In this document: piece after piece, positions 11,118 to 23,194 of the stretch
Numbering within the stretch: position 1 is the first letter of the stretch
Layout of the letters: each line of letters starts with the position of its first letter
Source: a virus
Taxonomy: Duplodnaviria; Heunggongvirae; Uroviricota; Caudoviricetes
Virus record (IMG/VR): IMGVR_UViG_3300045391_007586
DNA length: 39,194 bases
Reading direction: 5' to 3' (one strand)
Position numbers and translations under genes: made by a program
Notes under the pieces: generated by a model
The model's input: only the letters and a program-made list of their open reading frames with translations
Database searches by the model: none
What the model was told of the DNA's origin: nothing

Positions 11118-12413
11118 TTAGATCGCCTTTATAGGAATCGTCTTTCGCAGCTTGGGCCGGCGAATATCTCCATCGATATGCACCATGATCTTGCCGGTGA
11201 GCCAATACAAGGCGCCGGACATGACCGCAGTGTTGAACTGAAATTCGTTCTCGCACGCCACATCAAATGCAGCACCTTCCTGATACATGCAGGCGCCGCC
11301 GCAAAGCTGGAGCACCGGGCAATGAGCGCAGTTCGGACGCTTGGACCAATGCCATGAGGTATCCACTGCGACCGACTCGAAGTCGCTTACATGGCCGACG
11401 CCGTGCTTACCCTTCGCGCCGACGTTCTGACATGTCATGACGTTGCCCTTCAGGTCAACCGCGAGCTGATCGGGCCGATCCATGCCGCACTTCTGCCACA
11501 GGGCGGTCGACGGCCGCTTCTGGCGCAGCGAGTCGATGAAGTTCGCCGCCTTGGCCGCAATCGTGTTGTCGTAGCCGCCAGGCGTGCGATTCACGAGCGC
11601 GTTGATGATGTTCCACTGGAGCTGCGAGTATTGCGCCTGCGTCCAGGTAGCGTCGTCTGTCCGGCCGTCCGAGTGCGGGTGAACGATACCCTCGAACGAC
11701 GCCATCACCGTCTCGCCGATCTTTTCGCTCAACCACTGCCGGGGCGAATCGATGTCGAGGTTTGCCGGCGTGATGACGGTGTTGAACGACATCATCCCCT
11801 TGCGGCCGATGCGTTGCCACAGCTTGCGCAGCATCGCGGCCTTCTCCGGGTCGTCGAATGGGTCCGGCCCGCGCAGGTGTTGCGCCTTCGCGTCGTGCGA
11901 TACGACGATGTAGATGTTGTGCCTGTCGATGAAGTCGATCTTCTCGTCGTCGAGCACGCTACCGTTCGTCACAACCAGCATGTGCGCATCCGGGAAGCGC
12001 TCGCGCATCGCCGGAATCAACACCTGCATGTGCTTCCAGTAGGCGAATGGCTCACCGCCCCAGAATTCGATCTTGTTTGGCTTGCTTTTGAGCCATGAGT
12101 CAAGATTTGCGAGGAAATCTTCCGCGTCCTTGACGTTCGAGACCGTTGCGTCTGGAATCTCCGACGACTGAAGGCAATAGGAGCACGCGTAGTTGCATTG
12201 CAGTCCGAGCTGGATTTTCAGGCGAACCGGCGCCCCGTGCTTCTTGCCGGGGCTGTCAGGCGAGATCGCGGTTGCGACCGGCCAGTTTCTCGCCTTCTCG
12301 TCGTAATCGAGCGGGACCGGGTTCCCGGCCTCGTCCGTCAGCGTGCTCGTGTGCGGGTCGTATAGGAGATATGAAACCGACCCATCCCCGCCCTGCATTG
12401 TCAGGCGATACAT
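11118..12413 (-). CDS. Radical SAM enzyme with SPASM domain
   Basis: CxxxCxxC (CNYACSYC), GGEP, VTNG, and SPASM-type cysteines CG...GNVMTC...CAHCPVLQLCGGAC...C. Confidence 0.93.
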   Translation of the reverse strand: MYRLTMQGGDGSVSYLLYDPHTSTLTDEAGNPVPLDYDEKARNWPVATAISPDSPGKKHGAPVRLKIQLGLQCNYACSYCLQSSEIPDATVSNVKDAEDFLANLDSWLKSKPNKIEFWGGEPFAYWKHMQVLIPAMRERFPDAHMLVVTNGSVLDDEKIDFIDRHNIYIVVSHDAKAQHLRGPDPFDDPEKAAMLRKLWQRIGRKGMMSFNTVITPANLDIDSPRQWLSEKIGETVMASFEGIVHPHSDGRTDDATWTQAQYSQLQWNIINALVNRTPGGYDNTIAAKAANFIDSLRQKRPSTALWQKCGMDRPDQLAVDLKGNVMTCQNVGAKGKHGVGHVSDFESVAVDTSWHWSKRPNCAHCPVLQLCGGACMYQEGAAFDVACENEFQFNTAVMSGALYWLTGKIMVHIDGDIRRPKLRKTIPIKAI

Positions 12414-13120: not shown

Positions 13121-13168
13121 TCGATACTCCGAAAGTTGATCAGATTCTAAAGCCAAGCCGCCGAAATA

Positions 13169-13186
13169 TCAATCAACGTTGACTGA
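13169..13186. promoter_or_regulatory. Operator-like site 7 (TCAATCA-ACGT-TGACTGA)
   Basis: Within the last codons of fibre 3, upstream of the Ig-like/rSAM pair. Confidence 0.65.
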
Positions 13187-14356
13187 TAGTCCGGCCCAGG
13201 CAATCGACTCGTAGTCGAACGCGAACTCGTTCACGCGCGCACCTACGACATATCCGTTGACGATGATCGGGCTTCCTTCTGTCACGGGAAGGTAGAGTTG
13301 CGTATCGGGACCGTAGGACGGGTCAGCGACCACCGCTTGCCCCTTCCAGCCGTCAATGTGCGCGTATTCGAAGCCGTCGCCCACGAACATGCTGTAGTTG
13401 TCGCGAAGGCCGGCAAGGTGCCCGATTCGCACTTCGAAGCGCCACTGATCCGGGTTCGCGCACCACCACCATTCGTCGCCGTCCTGATCGCGCGCCCAGA
13501 GCATGTGCTCTTCGCTCCAGCTCAGAGAGCCGTCCGCGAACGTCATCATGCGTCGCTCGCCGAGGACTGGCCGATCGATGTCGACGACTTGCACGGGGCC
13601 ATACACGCCCATCACCATGTCGCCAATCTGCACGTCCTCGATGTTCTTCCAAGACCCGTCACCCATGAGGACTTGCGATCCTGCCGGAAAGCACGAGCAC
13701 GGGCATTGGCAATTGCAGTTGCAGTTGATAGCGTTCGGCCCGCGAGGTCCGGGAGGTCCGGGAGGGCCTGGAGGCCCGTAACCGCCTCCCGGACCCGTAG
13801 CGCCCTGATAGCCCGTTGGTCCGGTCGGCCCTGGGGCGCCGGTCGCCCCGGTAGGCCCTGTGGGGCCGGTCGGCCCAGGCTTCCCGATCTTGATTGCGCC
13901 AAGGTCGGTGCCATTCGCGAGCTGATAGCCAGTGACCGTCGCTGTGCCGTTGGATTGCAGCCCGCCGTTCGCGACGAGTTGGCCCGACATTGTGCCGCCC
14001 GACTTCATGATTCGAAGCGCAATGACGGCCTGCGCAAAGGCGGTCGTCGCGAGCTGCGAGTTGTTTGTCCCCACCGGCGCGGTCGGCCCCTTCGGGACTC
14101 CTGTGAATGCGGGCGAGTCAAGGTAAGCGGCAACGCGATTCAGGTCAAACGCCAGCGTCCAGGTTGCAGGAGAAGCGCTGGTCAGTTGGTAGAGCTGGAG
14201 CAAGTCCGTGCGAAGACAGAACATACCGACCACGAGATTCGTTGTCGGAAATGCCGTGCCTGCACTGGCAGACAACGCCGTGCTGTCGTTGTTCACCAGC
14301 TCGCCAATACTACCTTCGAGCGTTTCCGCGCTCGACACCATTGTGAAGTTTTGCAT
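13169..14356 (-). CDS. Tail fibre paralogue 3: fibre N-domain + collagen + CxCxCxCxCxC + Hint domain
   Basis: [27 protein letters not shown] fibre repeat; 17 GXY triplets (13733-13885); [11 protein letters not shown]; [21 protein letters not shown] and SEEH Hint motifs. Confidence 0.85.
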
Positions 14357-14362
14357 GTGACC

Positions 14363-15052
14363 TTAGCTGCAATAGACCGCGAATCCTGAAAGGGCTCCAG
14401 GCGGGCCTGGAGGCCCAGGTGGACCCGGAGGCCCAGGCGGACCCGGAGGTCCATAAGGGCCGGGCGCACCCGTCGGGCCACGCGCCCCGGTAGTCCCTGT
14501 GGGGCCGGTCGGACCTGCGGGGCCGACTGGACCTGTAGGTCCAACGATGAGCGCGCCCAAATCCGTCCCGTTTGCGATCTGGAAGCCGGTGACGGTGCCA
14601 CTAACGCCGCTCGATGCGCGGAAATTGCCGGCGCTCGCGGGTGCCGAACTCGTGATCAACCCCGAAACTGTGTCGGTCGTATTGGAGACGAGCAGCGCGA
14701 ATAGAGCCTGAATGAAAGCGGTTGTCGCAAGCTGGTTCGAGCTGTCGAATCCGGCCAGGTTGGAACCCGTCGTTGCGGTCGGAGCCTGCGGCGTTCCCGT
14801 AAATTCGGGCGAGTCCAGGTAGGCCATCAAGCCGCTCATGTCGAACGCGAGCTTCCACGTCGGCGCCAGGTCCGTCAGCTCGAACAGTTGGTTCAGGTCC
14901 GTTCGAAAGCAGAACATGCCCACTTGCAGGTTCGCGGTGGGGAATGCCGTTCCGGCGTTGCACGACAAGACGGTCTGGTCATTCTGAAGGAACAACGCCA
15001 GCGAGTCCTTCAGCTTCATGTCCGCGGTGACGGGCGTGTATTGCTGCGTCAT
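14363..15052 (-). CDS. Tail fibre paralogue 2: fibre N-domain + collagen, no Hint
   Basis: Same N-domain ([22 protein letters not shown]); 17 GXY triplets (14390-14542); ends SGFAVYCS. Start overlaps the paralogue 1 stop (ATGA). Confidence 0.85.
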
Positions 15053-16224
15053 GCCAATCCCTTCCAGTCGATTTTGCTGTAGTCGAATCCGGCCTCATTC
15101 ACGGATGCGCCGACCAGGTAGCCATTGACGATAATTGGCGGGCCATCAGTCACAGGAAGGTAGAGCGGCGTCTCGGCGCCCCAACCTTGCTCCACCACTA
15201 CCTTGCGCTCGACGAAACCGCTGACGTTCGCAAACAATACGTCGTCGCCGGAAAGCACGCTGTAGTTGTCCCTCAAGCCGCCCACCTGCCCTACCGCAAC
15301 CTCATAGCGCCATTGGTCGGGATTCGCTGACCACCACCACTGCTGATCGCCACGCTTGGCCCAAAAGCAGTGCTCTTCGCTCCAGAGCAGCGAACGATCG
15401 GAGAAGCCCATCATGCGGCGAGGCCCCAACGAAGTAACGTAAAGGTGCTTCACGCGCGCAGGGCCATCAACACTCATCACGAGGTCGCCCGCGCAGACGC
15501 GCTCGACAGCCTTTGTAGTCCCATCCGCCATGAGAACGGTCGCACCTGCGGGGAAGCAGCAGCAAGGGCATTGGCAAACGCAGTTGCAGTTCGACAGGCC
15601 GGAGACGCCAGTAGGCCCCGGAGGTCCAGGTGGCCCCGGAGGTCCGTATGGACCGGCGTAGCCAGTCGGACCAGTTGCGCCGGGTGCGCCGGGTGCGCCG
15701 GGTGCGCCCGTAGGTCCGGCCGGACCCGCTGGACCGGTCGGGCCTACGAGGACCGTGCCAAGGTCAGCACCGCTCGCGATCTTGAATCCGGTGTTTGTGA
15801 CGGATGTGCCGGCCGACTTGAATGATTGAGCTGTCAGCAGCCCATACATTGCGCCGCCCGTGCGCAGCAGCCCGAATGCGGCGACCGCCTGCGCGAACGC
15901 CGTCGTCGCGAGCTGGTTCGTGTTGATGTTCGATGCCGGGGTGGGCGCTGTCGGAATGCCGGTGAACGTCGGCGAGTTCAGGTAGGCGCGCGTGCGGTTG
16001 AAGTCGACGAGAAGAATCCAGCTTGGAGTCAGCGAGCCGTTTTGCACGGCATACTGATAGAGCTGAAGCAGGTCCGTGCGAAAACAGAACATCCCGACCT
16101 GAAGATTTTTCGTCGGGAACGACGTGCCCGCGCTGTTGGACATCGCGGTAAGGTCGTTGTTGGTCAGTTCCACCAACCCGTTCGCGATTGAGTCGCTAAG
16201 TTGGATGTTCGTGAATTTTTGCAT
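15049..16224 (-). CDS. Tail fibre paralogue 1: fibre N-domain + collagen + CxCxCxCxCxC + Hint domain
   Basis: [12 protein letters not shown]...QLATTAF repeat; 17 GXY triplets (15592-15744); [11 protein letters not shown]; [24 protein letters not shown] and SEEH. Confidence 0.85.
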
Positions 16225-16274: not shown

Positions 16275-17801
16275 TTAGTAGCCGTGCGCCGCCCAACTGA
16301 TCGTGCCGGCGACGTTCTGGCCCGTTGTCGGATCGACGAGGATGACTGTGAATCCGGTGTTCGTCGGGGAGCCAACAAAGCGAGGAACCGCCAGCAAGTC
16401 CGTGCCGCCCTTCAATTGCAGGGTGATCTCGGGCACTTTGTGATACTTGCGGTTGAAAGTGACCGTGACACCGCTCGCGGCGTTCGTGATCGTCGCCTCG
16501 CCGCTATCATTCACGTCTGGCACGTCAACCGTAATACTCATGTCGGTCAGCACGCCGCGGTCGAGCGTGAACGACTGCACGACGGCGCGGAAAAGCGCCT
16601 TCTGGTAGGTGTATGTGCCAGTGATGAAGGGCTTGAAGTTCGAGTAGCCCGGAGGCGACGACGCCTGAATGAGCGCACGGAATGCGTCGTCATCGAGCGA
16701 ATCGGTCGTAATGGAGAGATTCGAGACCACGCCGTTACCGTGGCGTCGATATTCCTCCAGCAGGTTAAACGCTTCCGCCTGTGGAAGCGTCGTCGCCTTC
16801 GCGAGCGCATCCTTCGTCTTGAAACCTTCGCTTAGCAGACGAAGGTATTCCACCGTGCGGCCGAACAGCTCCGCCGTGGCAATCGCTTCGTCGATGCCAA
16901 GCGAAGCGTTCTTGACGATGAAGTCCTCGGTCGAGAAATTCTCGGCGAATGGCAGCTTGGTTGCCTGCGCATACTTCTCCAGCACCGATACCGCCTCACT
17001 CAACCTGTGAATGATCGAACGGGCGAGCGATTCGCCAACTTTGACACTCTCGTGCGGCCGAAGGCCATAGTCCTTATCGAAACCAGACTCGACAGCCGCG
17101 AACGCTTCAGCAAGCGGCAGCGTGAAGCTGTTTCCCTGGAGCTCCTGCGCCTTGATATGCTCAACGACGTGCAGGATCGACGAGGCAATGTGAGTGTAGG
17201 CTTCGGCCGTTCGCCACGATTCGGGAATCCCCTTCCCGAACCGCTTCAGGTAGTCGTCTGAAGCCTGAAAAAACTCAGCGAGGGCCTTCGACAGGTCGTT
17301 CCCATACTGATCGGCAATGGAGAAGCCGTCATGCAGGTGAAAGTCCTGCGCACGCGCCAGCGACTCGCCGACGACAATCGGCTCGTGCGGATTCTTTACG
17401 AACGAGCGCGTGACACCAACCTCGGCAGCGCTGAAGCTCTCGGCGAATGGCAGAATTGGGTGGTTGCCGTAGCGCTCAAGCGTGGAAATCGCCTCCGCGA
17501 TCTGCCGCACCTGATTGCGCAAAAGACTATCACTGACATGGATAGCCTCATGCGGGCGCAAGCCATAGTTGCGAACAGCCGCCTCAGCCGTCGAGAATTG
17601 CTCTGCAACGGGCTTTGTTGTCGCCTTACCGAGGCGTTCGACGTTAGTCCACCCCTCGGTCGTGCTGACCGTGTAGTTCGAGTCGTAGGACGTGTTCCAC
17701 GACTTCTGCCCTCGATAATCCGTCCAGCCAAAACCACTCCCGGCCCACGTGTAGTAAGGGCCGGGAGTGTTCTGGACGCTGACTGTCGTTGGTGTAGTCA
17801 C
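16275..17801 (-). CDS. Putative tail-associated protein with internal repeats and C-terminal beta-sandwich
   Basis: Lies in the tail module; repeated PHExxxVx(D/E)SLxR units; C-terminus VTVTFNRKY..VPEI...TGFTV...ISWAAHGY resembles fibre-tip (H-type lectin-like) folds. Confidence 0.6.
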   Translation of the reverse strand: MTTPTTVSVQNTPGPYYTWAGSGFGWTDYRGQKSWNTSYDSNYTVSTTEGWTNVERLGKATTKPVAEQFSTAEAAVRNYGLRPHEAIHVSDSLLRNQVRQIAEAISTLERYGNHPILPFAESFSAAEVGVTRSFVKNPHEPIVVGESLARAQDFHLHDGFSIADQYGNDLSKALAEFFQASDDYLKRFGKGIPESWRTAEAYTHIASSILHVVEHIKAQELQGNSFTLPLAEAFAAVESGFDKDYGLRPHESVKVGESLARSIIHRLSEAVSVLEKYAQATKLPFAENFSTEDFIVKNASLGIDEAIATAELFGRTVEYLRLLSEGFKTKDALAKATTLPQAEAFNLLEEYRRHGNGVVSNLSITTDSLDDDAFRALIQASSPPGYSNFKPFITGTYTYQKALFRAVVQSFTLDRGVLTDMSITVDVPDVNDSGEATITNAASGVTVTFNRKYHKVPEITLQLKGGTDLLAVPRFVGSPTNTGFTVILVDPTTGQNVAGTISWAAHGY

Positions 17802-18306: not shown

Positions 18307-18335
18307 ATTATCAATCAGCTACGACTGATTGTCAA
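18307..18335 (-). promoter_or_regulatory. Promoter TTGACA-N17-GATAAT with operator site 10 (18311-18328) in the spacer
   Basis: Site TCAATCA-GCTA-CGACTGA. Confidence 0.78.
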
Positions 18336-18336
18336 G

Positions 18337-21300
18337 TTAATAGAGAGCCACCGTTGTGAAGGCTCCCTGCGGCAGCAGGCTCTCGGTGTCCGAGTTGACC
18401 TGCTGGCCGTCCATCGAACCGACGAAGATGCTGCGCGTCGCTTGTCCTTGGTTGATCGCCACAAGGTATTGAATTCCGGTCGTCAGAACGAACGGCACAT
18501 ATTGGCGATACGCCTTCCCGTCTTCGAGATAGAACGCCTGCTTTTGAGCCGAGTAGCCAACACGCAGTAGCGCGCCATTAGCGCCGGTCAATGTCAGAAA
18601 GATGCAATCGGCAATCTCTTGCGGCGCAACCCAGAACGAGGTCGAGAAGACGGACGGCACGTTCACAGCCCACTTCACGAACGTCGTGTCGACGACATCG
18701 ACGCCCTGCCCGAAGCGGCCCTTTCCGTAGCTAACGCCGAGGGACTGCGTAGGCTGATCGCCCTGCAATCCCTGCAACGTTCCATTGAGCCCAAAACCGT
18801 CGACATCGTTCGGTTGAACGCCCTGGAACAAAGAAATCTGGGCGAACCCGTTCATGTTCGTCAGCGTCCCGGACGGGAGCCAACTTTGCCCCGCCTGCGC
18901 ATCGCCCCACGTGAAGTCGGCGCTATCCCATGTCAGCCCCGTCTTCACGGCGGCGTTCAAGCCGACCGAGACGGTGTTGTTCGCCGTGAACGTATCCCCG
19001 AGGTCCACCGCCATCATGTATTCGCCCTGCGTCACGCCGTCGTCCATGACGAGTTCGCCATCTTCGACCGTGAAGCCGAAGGCGGTGTCGGGGAAATTGT
19101 TCTGCGCCGCATCATCGACATAGACGACGTTGGTATTCGACGGCTGCGCGACGACGGCAGTCGAGAATACCGGCGTGTCACCATAGATGCCCGGTGATGC
19201 AACTGCCTTGATCCAGAATGTCGGCTGGCCGGAATACCCAGACGGCATCGTGTAGGTCGTCGCTTTGACCTGCGTTACTAGAATCGATGTGTTCCACGTC
19301 AACCCTTGGCGAATCTCGTAATACTCGATGTTGTCTTCCGGGTTCTTGTTCCAGACGAACACGAGGGATTGATACGACTGATTTACATCGAATCCCGTCA
19401 CCGCAACCGGCGCGTTCAGAGTGACGCCCACCTCCGCGGCACTCGTGGAATAAATCTTGGCGGTATTGATCGCCTTGATCCAATACTGCTTCTGCCCTGC
19501 GGTCGATTCGTGCGCCGAGAACGAAGTGCCCTGATAGTTCGTCACCAGAACTGTGCCGTCATCCCAATTGACCCCTTCCCGAATCTCGTAACCGGCAAGG
19601 TCGACTTCGGTGTTCGGCGACCACTGAAGCAGAATGTCCGACACGCGAACGGTCAAGGTGAAGTCCGCCACCTGAGCGGGCGGCAGCAGTTGCCCTTGAA
19701 CGGTATAGGTAATCTGCGGCGCGAGCCCGTATGGAGCTTTTGCCCCGACGACATCCTGCGCCTGCACCTTGAAAGTGACTACCTGGCCCTGGTTCAGGTC
19801 GATCGTGGCCCGGTCGTATGCCTTGTCGGTCAGCAGTTGCCACGCCCCGCCGTCCACACTCGTATAGACGGACGAGTTCGCGTAGGTGCTCTGCGCCGAC
19901 GAGAACGACACCGTGACATGGCTGCGGAAGTTGTTGCCCGTCCGGTAGAGCTCTTCGGTCACGCCGGCAATCGTCGCCTGCTTGACGGTCGGATCGAGCG
20001 CAGAATAGTCCGGCTCCGGGGCCGCGCTCGCGCCGGAAAGATCGTAGATCGACGGGTTGTATTCGATCGCCGTGATGTCGCGCCGGTAGTCGGTCGTGCC
20101 GCTGATTGCCGTGACGCGGAACGGCTTGCCATACTTCCCGACCGAGCCAAACATCCAGTTCTGGAACTGTGCGGGCGCGGCCGGCAGTGGCGACTGGAGC
20201 GTGAGCTGCGTGTTGCCGGTCTGCCCGTTGTTCACGACGCCGACCGTGATCATGCAGTCGGTGTCGTAGAGCTGGTAGGTATATCCGTTCTGGAATGGCG
20301 CGGTCGAATCGACCATGACGCCCCACAGGCCGGCATTGTTGTAATGCGTGCCCGTGACCTCGAAGTCCCCGATCAGCGCACCGCCTTGATATGCCCAGAT
20401 GCGGCGCACGCGCTGAACACCGTCGAACCCAGACAGCCAGAGCACGTTGCCCGACATGCCGACGATCGTCCCGGCGTAGCGTTGCAGGCTATCCCACAGA
20501 ACCATGAGCTGATATTGCAGCCCCGGCGTCATATCAACCGGGCGGTCGAGCTGCACGACAGTCTGCGTCGAGCCCGCAGCGAAACGACCGCCATAGCCCC
20601 AATCCGGCATGTCGTGCTGCACGAGAATCACATCGCCGACCGTGCAGGCGACTGCTTCGAGCGGCGCACCGAACTGGATCGTCTGAGTGACGTAGCGGTT
20701 CAGGTTGAGCTGGAACAGCGCTTCCTGATACGCGCGCTGATAGTCGACAATGCCGATCAACTGAATCTGCGCAGTCTTGGGCGCGCGGCCAGCGACGATC
20801 GCGGACGGGTCATAAACCCGAACACGATGCTCCTTGTAGTGGTCGGTCTGGTCGTAATATGCGACCTCGATCTCGTTTGCGCGGTCGGTGATGCTCGACC
20901 ACGACTCCTGGAAGGAGCCCTCGATGATGTTCGCCACCGAGAACATCATGACCGGATCGGCCGGCCCTTCGATCGCGATCGTGTAGCGGGTGCCAGCATT
21001 CACAAGCTGCCCATGCCCGACACGCAGCACAATCTGAAGCGCATCCCAGAGGCTCTGCTGCTGATCGATGACGCCGTTGAACGTCAGCCCTTCGGCGTTG
21101 CAGAAATCTGCCCACCGCTTGAACGCGTCCAGGTCGAGCCGCGACGGGTCCATGCCGCCGCCGTATCGCGTGTTCGTCATCATGTCCCAGACGATCCACG
21201 CGGGGTTATTCCAATTGCTGTAAACCCATTGCGGAACATCCGACCAGGACACGTCCACGTAGCCCCAAATCAGCTTGCCGTGGTTGAGGTAGGTGACGTT

Positions 21301-22830
21301 CGGGATCGATGAGAGCTGATTGGTAAGCAGCACTTGCACCGCCACGAGAGCGGTGTTGTTGTAGCCAACCGAGCCGTAGGTGATCTCGTTGATGTCCGAG
21401 ACCGACACGATGTCCATCGTGTATTGATCCGACAACGCGGCCACGTTCGACGTGCGTCGCATGCGGATGTTATACATCCCGGTCGGAACCTGCTGCGACC
21501 AGACAGACATGCGCACCGCCGAGCGGTTGTTGTCCGAAATCTGGATCACGCCCGAGTAGCGCGGAATCTGCATCGACGCGCGATTGCCCCACACGTTGAT
21601 GCCGACGTAGTTCCGATTGATCGTATCGAGGTCTTGCTGGCTCACCGGCCCGTAATTCGGGTTGCCCGTGGAGTCGCTGTAATACCAGTTGTAGGTCGGC
21701 GGAACTTCGGTGTATTGCCACCCCCAAGGGCCATTCGTTTCGACGACATACATATTCGACGTGTCGTCGTAATAAAGGTAGTTGGCCGGAGGCGTGATCG
21801 TTGCCCACACCCACTGCATCGTCTCGATGGTTGTCGTGGGCGTCACCGATTGCCAGGCGCCCGTCCCGAGCGGTGCGAACTGCATTTCCATTTGGACGGA
21901 AATGCCGCTGGAACTGCCACTGTTCTTGTCGACGTGGTAGAGACCGTCCGGCGCCACGACGTCCACGCGGAACGCATCAATCGGCCCCTGGGTCGTGTAG
22001 TAGACCCATTCCGTCGTCAGAGTCTCGTTGAAACTGAACGGCGCGATGTTCTGTGAGAATCCGGGCAGCGGTTGCTGCTGCGGATTTCCCGGCAACGTCC
22101 ACACGTTGACGTTCTGGTAGAGCGTGTAGTCGTTGAAGTCGAACTGAACGTCCGTAATGCCAGCGATCGGCCCCTCGCCGGCCGCAATCAGCATGTGCAG
22201 GATTTGTGTCGCGTAGCCCTGTGGATCGGTCGCGCCGTTATCCACATACATATCGATGATGTTGCCGGCCATGCGAACGGTCCCGTAAACAACCGGGACC
22301 GGCGTGTTTTCGAGCGACGTGTTCTTTGCGCCGTCGATACCGTAGGTTGGCGACGTTTTGCCCTGATCCGTGTTGGCTTTGGGCGCGGGAAGAAGCGCAT
22401 TAACGAGCAGCGTGCCCGCGATCGTCACGGCCATCGAGGCGGCAACGCCAGCAGCGGCGCCCGCTACAGTGCCGAAGCCGCCGTATGCCGCAGCAGCAGC
22501 GCCGCCCGTGTAGACGGACGCCACAGCAACCGCGATCATTGCGATGATGCGGAAAATCCCCTTGCCGCCGCCACCACCGCCTTGTGGGACGGGACAAAGC
22601 ACGATGTTGTCTGTCGGTGCCAGATACGTCACCGGGAAGTTATCCGGCTCGACGACCTTGCCATTGATCGAGACAACGTGCTCGATTGACCCTGCCGGAA
22701 AATAATCGGCAAGCGTGAAGTCGCCGACCCATTCAATCTCTTCGCGAACGTGCTCGCGAGGATTGAACGGGTTGACGATACGAATGACGGGAATCTTACT
22801 GGACGGCTTGAGCGCTACGAGGTCCGACAT
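18337..22830 (-). CDS. Central tail fibre / host-specificity protein (lambda J-like, I-like N-terminus)
   Basis: About 1500 aa; Gly/Ala-rich TM-like segment then PVPVVYG; FN3-like repeats (LQWSPN.E.DLAGYEIR, FVWNKN..NIEYYEIR). Start ATG 22830 (TTG 22845 possible). Confidence 0.88.
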   Translation of the reverse strand: MSDLVALKPSSKIPVIRIVNPFNPREHVREEIEWVGDFTLADYFPAGSIEHVVSINGKVVEPDNFPVTYLAPTDNIVLCPVPQGGGGGGKGIFRIIAMIAVAVASVYTGGAAAAAYGGFGTVAGAAAGVAASMAVTIAGTLLVNALLPAPKANTDQGKTSPTYGIDGAKNTSLENTPVPVVYGTVRMAGNIIDMYVDNGATDPQGYATQILHMLIAAGEGPIAGITDVQFDFNDYTLYQNVNVWTLPGNPQQQPLPGFSQNIAPFSFNETLTTEWVYYTTQGPIDAFRVDVVAPDGLYHVDKNSGSSSGISVQMEMQFAPLGTGAWQSVTPTTTIETMQWVWATITPPANYLYYDDTSNMYVVETNGPWGWQYTEVPPTYNWYYSDSTGNPNYGPVSQQDLDTINRNYVGINVWGNRASMQIPRYSGVIQISDNNRSAVRMSVWSQQVPTGMYNIRMRRTSNVAALSDQYTMDIVSVSDINEITYGSVGYNNTALVAVQVLLTNQLSSIPNVTYLNHGKLIWGYVDVSWSDVPQWVYSNWNNPAWIVWDMMTNTRYGGGMDPSRLDLDAFKRWADFCNAEGLTFNGVIDQQQSLWDALQIVLRVGHGQLVNAGTRYTIAIEGPADPVMMFSVANIIEGSFQESWSSITDRANEIEVAYYDQTDHYKEHRVRVYDPSAIVAGRAPKTAQIQLIGIVDYQRAYQEALFQLNLNRYVTQTIQFGAPLEAVACTVGDVILVQHDMPDWGYGGRFAAGSTQTVVQLDRPVDMTPGLQYQLMVLWDSLQRYAGTIVGMSGNVLWLSGFDGVQRVRRIWAYQGGALIGDFEVTGTHYNNAGLWGVMVDSTAPFQNGYTYQLYDTDCMITVGVVNNGQTGNTQLTLQSPLPAAPAQFQNWMFGSVGKYGKPFRVTAISGTTDYRRDITAIEYNPSIYDLSGASAAPEPDYSALDPTVKQATIAGVTEELYRTGNNFRSHVTVSFSSAQSTYANSSVYTSVDGGAWQLLTDKAYDRATIDLNQGQVVTFKVQAQDVVGAKAPYGLAPQITYTVQGQLLPPAQVADFTLTVRVSDILLQWSPNTEVDLAGYEIREGVNWDDGTVLVTNYQGTSFSAHESTAGQKQYWIKAINTAKIYSTSAAEVGVTLNAPVAVTGFDVNQSYQSLVFVWNKNPEDNIEYYEIRQGLTWNTSILVTQVKATTYTMPSGYSGQPTFWIKAVASPGIYGDTPVFSTAVVAQPSNTNVVYVDDAAQNNFPDTAFGFTVEDGELVMDDGVTQGEYMMAVDLGDTFTANNTVSVGLNAAVKTGLTWDSADFTWGDAQAGQSWLPSGTLTNMNGFAQISLFQGVQPNDVDGFGLNGTLQGLQGDQPTQSLGVSYGKGRFGQGVDVVDTTFVKWAVNVPSVFSTSFWVAPQEIADCIFLTLTGANGALLRVGYSAQKQAFYLEDGKAYRQYVPFVLTTGIQYLVAINQGQATRSIFVGSMDGQQVNSDTESLLPQGAFTTVALY

Positions 22831-23194
22831 ACTTATAGAATCCAACGAGACGAAGTTTCCAATTCGCGATCGGCTCGACGAGAACCCCGCCGCTGCGCTC
22901 CCATGAATGGATCATTCGGTATCGGTCAAGCATGTAGCCCACATGCGAGACATACCGGCCAATACGAAAAAGCGCGACAGCGCCGCGATCGCATTTCGTC
23001 TCTTCCCACTGAGGCAGGGCCTCGCCGACCAGCGCCGCAACAACTCCTTGATCGGAGTGCGCACCGAAGTCGGGAATCACAATGCCGTCACGCCTCGACA
23101 TTTCCATGACGAGCCCGTAACAGTCGAACGAGTCAGGACCACGCCCGCGCACCTTGAACGGAACGCCGATGAGGTCTACGTGGTTAGCCGGCAT
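22796..23194 (-). CDS. NlpC/P60 tail-tip protein (lambda K-like)
   Basis: GRGPDSFDCYGLV and SHVG catalytic motifs; true start ATG 23194. Confidence 0.88.
   Translation of the reverse strand: MPANHVDLIGVPFKVRGRGPDSFDCYGLVMEMSRRDGIVIPDFGAHSDQGVVAALVGEALPQWEETKCDRGAVALFRIGRYVSHVGYMLDRYRMIHSWERSGGVLVEPIANWKLRLVGFYKYVGPRSAQAVQ

Follow-up and report, generated by a model that had tools for sequence, protein, structure and literature searches.

Introduction

Prokaryotic collagens are homotrimers according to a review of the field (PMC8968730), which agrees with what an earlier note on the DNA studied here said of phage and bacterial collagens in general. For bacteria, heterotrimeric collagen has been no more than a suggestion, made for Pasteuria (PMC7743900), and hetero-oligomeric phage fibres built of paralogues are described for phiKZ, without collagen (PMC13250141). 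A literature search, which mostly did not extend to subscription journals, found no natural collagen heterotrimer outside animals. For 1:1:1 collagen trimers there are 27 possible competing arrangements of the chains (PMC12562938).

Here we analyse three paralogous fibre genes, A, B and C, in a 39,194-nucleotide stretch (the window) of a 109-kb IMG/VR provirus with a GC content of 60%. Their products probably form an ABC collagen heterotrimer, with one copy of each chain per helix.

The fibre trio and its gene neighbourhood

The coordinates of the trio and its neighbours are collected in Table 1. Genes for the tape measure, minor tail protein L and a J-like tip protein lie upstream of the trio, and the chains match PHROG tail-fibre families at aa 56-142, which together argues that the trio encodes the side-fibre chains of a siphophage. 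The 508-aa protein encoded between the J-like gene and the trio consists of repeated acidic and hydrophobic units and has no match in Pfam or PHROG; its relatives precede the fibre in nearly every locus of the family (343 aa in locus L086, 395 aa in L004). Sigma-70-like promoter matches on the minus strand lie at 13144-13172, just upstream of the partner and radical SAM genes, and at 18307-18335, just downstream of the J-like gene; with four matches against 2.0 expected the signal is weak.

Table 1. Features of the fibre locus, in coordinates of the window.
Feature	Position	Strand	Remarks
Radical SAM/SPASM enzyme, phrog_1802	11118..12413	minus	candidate maturase of the Cys-rich tips
Uncharacterised partner protein, ~235-247 aa	12413..13156	minus	Ig-like C-terminal half by inspection
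Fibre chain C, 395 aa	13169..14356	minus	N-terminal part, collagen, Cys-rich tip, Hint
Hint domain of C	13172..13693	minus	AlphaFold2 pLDDT 96.9; best Foldseek match 1at0, E 5e-6
Alternating-Cys tip of C, aa 212-222	13691..13723	minus	
Collagen stalk of C, 17 triplets	13733-13885	minus	triplet 9 GYQ = 13805-13813
Fibre chain B, 229 aa	14363..15052	minus	A-like N-terminal part with B-specific inserts, collagen, YCS end, without head domain
Collagen stalk of B, 17 triplets	14390-14542	minus	Arg at Y of triplet 7 = 14480-14488
Fibre chain A, 391 aa	15049..16224	minus	N-terminal attachment domain and tail-repeat segment, collagen, Cys-rich tip, Hint
Hint domain of A	15052..15558	minus	Cys1, block-B SEEH, without terminal His-Asn
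Alternating-Cys tip of A, aa 213-223	15556..15588	minus	last Cys = Hint Cys1
Collagen stalk of A, 17 triplets	15592-15744	minus	Tyr at X of triplet 10 = 15655-15663
508-aa repeat protein, upstream of the trio	16275..17801	minus	candidate attachment adaptor
Lambda-J-like central tail-tip protein	18337..22845	minus	upstream of the fibre trio

Three collagen stalks of equal length

Each of the three genes encodes exactly 17 uninterrupted Gly-X-Y triplets (17/17/17), starting four residues past a G-x-D-L-G motif; both observations had been made by hand in the earlier note and hold at the positions of Table 1. The same is true of its division of the trio into two Cys-rich, Hint-bearing chains (A and C) and one short chain ending in YCS (B). 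Beyond these three, neither the coding strand of the window nor the whole 109-kb genome has a run of more than six triplets. The three chains score 38.3, 37.0 and 31.9 bits against the collagen repeat model PF01391, all above the Pfam gathering score of 27.2. Each stalk closes with one or two cap-like triplets (GVS GLS, GAL, GPN), and the exact count is therefore soft by about one. Three random picks among the retrieved collagen-bearing proteins share an equal length in 0.1-1.3% of cases, although the proper null for paralogues is shared ancestry and not a random draw.

A Gly-X-Tyr triplet, with Tyr at Y, falls at position 11 in A, 10 in B and 12 in C and is followed by GPP, as the earlier note reported for the window. 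As a conserved register mark this ladder was rejected: it is missing from the B orthologue of L005 and L087 and from GPQ-type relatives. The informative tyrosines appear to be those at X, in triplet 10 of A and triplet 9 of C. Whether triplets are of the GPP or the GPQ kind tracks the lineage and not the gene. A PF13640 2OG-Fe(II) oxygenase gene of PKHD-like type lies elsewhere in the same genome (C1 27249-27848), and L122 has another member of this family three genes after its GPP-rich single-gene collagen fibre; the oxygenase is a possible prolyl hydroxylase for GPP runs.

Stalk lengths in related loci

We searched for further trios in IMG/VR, GTDB genomes, JGI metagenomes, phages and plasmids and with a profile against 1.8 billion sequences, all limited by the motifs used. 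Trios were few in these collections: at least three are complete (the window, L004 and L086), and they form two full-length classes, of 17 and 15 triplets. The 1.8-billion-sequence search was swamped by tail-repeat proteins and gained only P0319, and a search of sequencing-run reads gave low-depth fragments only, which are uninformative on length variation.

The long-short-long trio recurs, with a partner gene and a radical SAM gene, in a prophage of Herbaspirillum huttiense (L004; GCA_031583705.1), where the stalks count 15/15/15. The complete trio of L086 counts 15/14/16 strictly and 15/15/15 by homologous landmarks: chain B has lost the Gly of its fifteenth unit, and the distance from helix start to first Cys is 46 residues in A and 48 in C, matching Herbaspirillum; the corresponding distances in the window are 52 and 54. 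The offset of the first Cys after the helix is conserved for each chain type. All three complete loci thus have three distinct chains with length-matched collagen, L086 by landmarks only. Among partial loci, the Logan contig L005 has 17 triplets in both B and C (x/17/17), L087 has 17 in B, and L109 (run DRR343893; 1-1339), where both neighbouring genes are cut, has a B with 16 triplets and Asp at X of triplet 3. The family also includes single-gene fibres, L122 (6001-7383) and L124 (728-2110), with the N-domain of the trio, 8-9 GPP-rich triplets and a Hint domain; they lack a Cys ladder, and their surroundings contain no radical SAM gene.

The earlier note had raised the question of whether triplet counts co-vary among paralogues of related phages. 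They do, with 17/17/17 and x/17/17 in one class and 15/15/15 and, by landmarks, 15/15/15 in the other, although a permutation test on lengths alone is not significant (p 0.056), the pattern amounting to about one coordinated event. Between close orthologues the triplets turn over (~55% identity at X and Y) while length is kept. Equal length could be a leftover of an inherited triplication without structural meaning, since paralogues are equal at duplication and few loci were found; we give this reading very little credence. Lengths differ by lineage (17, 15, and 16 in B of L109) and agree within a locus, stalk sequence turns over without change of length, and the pair signal described below is non-random.

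The paralogues are old

A tree of the N-domain groups the genes by position, with clade support of 81/82 for A, 98/98 for B and 83/84 for C. An origin by genome-specific triplication is rejected both for Herbaspirillum (p-AU 0.0014) and for L086 (p-AU 0.0005); monophyly of the window-lineage genes falls short of formal rejection (p-AU 0.096). Because the tree groups genes by position, the change between 15 and 17 triplets is taken to have hit three already distinct genes. In the window, synonymous sites between the paralogues are saturated, third-codon-position identity in the stalks is 0.23-0.29 with no shared tract longer than 18 nt, and the Hint domains of A and C are distant from each other. 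The saturation and the short tract rule out that recent gene conversion made the stalks of the window equal. The position-wise clades and saturated sites argue against recent copying as the source of the matched lengths, and the low third-position identity, short tract and distant Hint domains indicate that length has been maintained.

Conversion between paralogues does occur in this fibre family, as the two Herbaspirillum Hint domains (L004 8001-10988) are sisters (support 97/96). Old conversion across the repeats, or a ruler-type constraint, would keep the lengths equal if A, B and C formed three separate homotrimeric fibres (A3, B3 and C3) in equivalent tail-tip sockets. Such an arrangement follows the stated rule for prokaryotic collagens (PMC8968730) and is in line with the lineage-wise triplet composition and the converted Hint domains of one lineage; the single-gene short-collagen fibres of L122 and L124 mean that the family can make homotrimeric collagen, and a further fibre with the same N-domain in the genome means that several fibre types can coexist. 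We nevertheless regard separate homotrimers as unlikely. The synonymous sites of the window are saturated, chain B lacks a head domain in every locus, which would make a B homotrimer a headless stub, and the axial contacts of the next section point from each gene to another.

Axial pairs favour one chain order

In a collagen helix the stabilising axial contact links the Y residue of triplet n with the X residue of triplet n+1 in the strand that follows (PMC12533406), and the n+1 pair from the trailing to the leading strand is lateral (PMC9599227). From the latter we infer, by helical symmetry, that the axial pair from trailing to leading strand is n+2. All 27 chain arrangements were scored over six loci anchored at the invariant motif; the A chain of L087 is truncated, and its position was set by its C-terminal end. 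Under our first rule, which counts charge, cation-pi and amide-pi pairs and was framed post hoc, after inspection of the sequences, the arrangement C (leading)-A (middle)-B (trailing) has 11 pairs against 7 for the next, with p 0.0002 when shuffled chains are each allowed their best of the 27 orders. With terminal triplets and a redundant locus removed, p is 0.0013 for this rule, 0.0007 with Lys/Arg only and 0.0003 with all pairs.

An offset scan that assumes no chain order peaks at +1 from C to A, +1 from A to B and +2 from B to C, and the reverse directions have no comparable peak. The combination +1/+1/+2 is the closure required by a triple helix. Three Lys-Asn pairs that fall outside the first rule all lie on the same offsets. 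Taken together, every testable Asp, Asn, Phe or Tyr at an X position (14/14, six loci) has a Lys, Arg or Gln axial partner in the C-A-B order. The pairs are Q9-Y10, K3-N4, Q14-Y15 and R14-F15 from C to A; K4-N5, R9-Y10, K6-N7, K5-D6 and R7-F8 from A to B; and R7-Y9, Q9-Y11, K1-D3 (two loci) and K2-D4 from B to C. Their positions differ between loci, and a C-to-A contact is found in 3/3 complete trios. Several Lys/Arg at Y positions have no axial partner. The window itself contributes only two pairs, B Arg7-C Tyr9 and C Gln9-A Tyr10, both made by triplet 9 of C; taken alone it gives p 0.006 for the fixed order and 0.08 for any order.

Under the same post hoc rule the determinants favour this one order over homotrimers. 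Homotrimeric orders yield no favourable axial pairs in the window, and C3 yields none in any locus; with Lys/Arg donors only, the axial offsets give A-A 0, C-C 0 and B-B 1, although A3 scores well in GPQ-rich chains through terminal Gln-aromatic pairs. The partners sit on another gene and shift together between loci, which is difficult to reconcile with A3, B3 and C3 assembling separately.

The pair counts also bear on two-chain or variable mixes (A2B plus C2B, or ABB), in which B would be a filler and A and C alternative tips, as their shared architecture in the window might suggest. In L086 the orders AAB and ABB score as high as C-A-B, and in a conservative count CBB is only just behind (7 vs 8). 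We consider such mixes very unlikely, since all 14 targets are met only by C-A-B, which is best or tied in 5/6 loci, and the C-to-A contact recurs in the complete trios; C-A-B ranks second in Herbaspirillum under the first rule, and the summed counts are 11 vs 7, or 6 vs 3 with Lys/Arg only. The co-varying lengths and the one favoured order lend support to the proposal of the earlier note that the three chains co-assemble in register.

Structure prediction lends weak support to a complex and adds little on chain composition. ESMFold2 gave the three mature chains a complex score of 0.40 against 0.11 for the best control (at least 84% agreement between runs, partner pLDDT of 71 or more); with paralogous chains, such a score does not distinguish a heterotrimer from a homotrimer. 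Its mark was reached by 58/80 solved complexes and 2/110 mismatches, in the range at or below 0.60 by seven of the solved complexes and both mismatches. The AlphaFold2 monomer of chain C (pLDDT 32) is uninformative.

Cysteine-rich tips, Hint domains and the radical SAM enzyme

Between the tip cysteines, Asn (69) and Asp (20) predominate. Radical SAM genes occur in 39/39 loci with a Cys-rich tip, in the fibre or in a neighbouring gene, and in 0/11 without one, as counted over non-duplicate loci (L014-L113 set) with enough downstream DNA, many of them related. The partner protein is present in 32/36 loci that have both a Cys-tipped fibre and a radical SAM gene. The NCBIfam model nearest to the enzyme is PapB, at 66 bits well under its cut-off of 340. 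From this co-occurrence, radical SAM modification of the Cys-rich tips is likely.

The Hint domains are of the hedgehog/BIL type by fold, Cys1 and block-B His, the two residues being invariant in 40 homologues; the Foldseek match 1at0 is the hedgehog autoprocessing domain. Intein-type splicing is ruled out, as the terminal His-Asn is absent from the 40-sequence consensus. The Hint domains probably trim the Cys-rich tips. Many relatives without Hint end in Cys ladders, like the predicted cleaved chains. Chain A has no Hint domain in L086 and L109, and the domain is optional on this chain; its absence there and the Hint sisterhood in L004 reflect either domain gain or conversion between paralogues.

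A second fibre cassette lies outside the window in the same genome (C1 32179-35779). It has a fibre with the N-domain of the trio and a C-terminal S74 chaperone, followed by a very Cys-rich tip protein with Hint and then by a second radical SAM gene.

A model for the fibre

We propose that a temperate siphophage builds a single side tail fibre from A, B and C, each supplying a different chain. The N-terminal region would co-trimerise one copy of each chain, and the stalks would then wind into an ABC triple helix with C leading, A in the middle and B trailing. Collagen rises by ~0.29 nm per residue, which for 51 residues gives a helix of ~15 nm. Sparse axial contacts of Lys, Arg or Gln with Asp, Asn, Tyr or Phe would favour the C-A-B register over its competitors. 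The resulting tip would be asymmetric, with two Cys-rich tails and one short tail. Less certainly, Hint self-cleavage at Cys1 would leave chains of 222 (A), 229 (B) and 221 aa (C), and the radical SAM/SPASM enzyme with its Ig-like partner would modify the Cys-rich tips, probably by cross-linking them. The fibre would presumably serve in host contact.

On balance we lean towards the fuller statement that this is a natural single-register ABC collagen outside animals, its chains chosen by the axial pair code that designers use, and that it holds an asymmetric Cys-ladder tip. The locus is a small candidate (~220 aa per chain, 51-residue stalks) with a specific predicted chain order. If the model is true, phages arrived independently at chain selection and at control of the stagger, and the trio offers a natural scaffold, a bacterially expressible heterotrimerisation module for defined heterotrimers in E. 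coli. The tip would then consist of two Hint-released, radical SAM-cross-linked Cys ladders and a short chain, held at a fixed stagger.

Comparison with known systems

Among prokaryotic systems, Scl1/Scl2, BclA, Lcl and FibU (gp68) of phage 80alpha (PMC7048315) have, like the trio, a Gly-X-Y stalk between an anchor and a tip. They are described as homotrimers (PMC8968730), whereas in the phage trio three genes appear to contribute to one helix, and its chains score far below the cut-offs of the NCBIfam Scl and Lcl models. Collagen-free relatives occur in Achromobacter phages JWF (PJWF_00028) and 2-1 (gp27). They have the N-domain of the trio, a Cys-rich tip and a Hint domain and are located after J; next come, as in the window, a ~240-aa hypothetical gene and a radical SAM gene. 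They differ in having a single fibre gene.

The Hint domains share their fold with hedgehog and bacterial intein-like domains, and since the terminal His-Asn is absent no splicing is expected. The ranthipeptide maturases PapB and CteB are likewise radical SAM/SPASM enzymes encoded beside a stretch rich in Cys and Asn/Asp. The phage enzyme is far below the cut-offs of these families, and its putative substrate is a virion fibre tip and not a peptide.

Animal ABC collagens (IX, VI) are made, like the trio, of three paralogous length-matched chains in one staggered helix of fixed order, this order being a prediction in the case of the trio. Complement C1q is another heterotrimeric animal collagen of ABC type. 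The homology of the trio with animal collagens is limited to the repeat: outside it the chains match no NC domain in Pfam or PDB, which places them apart from the animal collagens. A tail-fibre N-domain takes the place of NC domains, the helix has 17 triplets only, and the ends are Cys ladders and Hint domains.

In designed ABC peptides (SCEPTTr/GRACE, PMC12533406; Gln-Phe axial pairs, PMC9599227) composition and register are set by pairs of the types that appear to set them in the trio. The phage fibre is natural, has only two to four such pairs, and is probably pre-aligned by its N-terminal trimeric domain. In its predicted behaviour it resembles animal ABC collagens and designed ABC peptides, yet it stands outside the animal collagen families.
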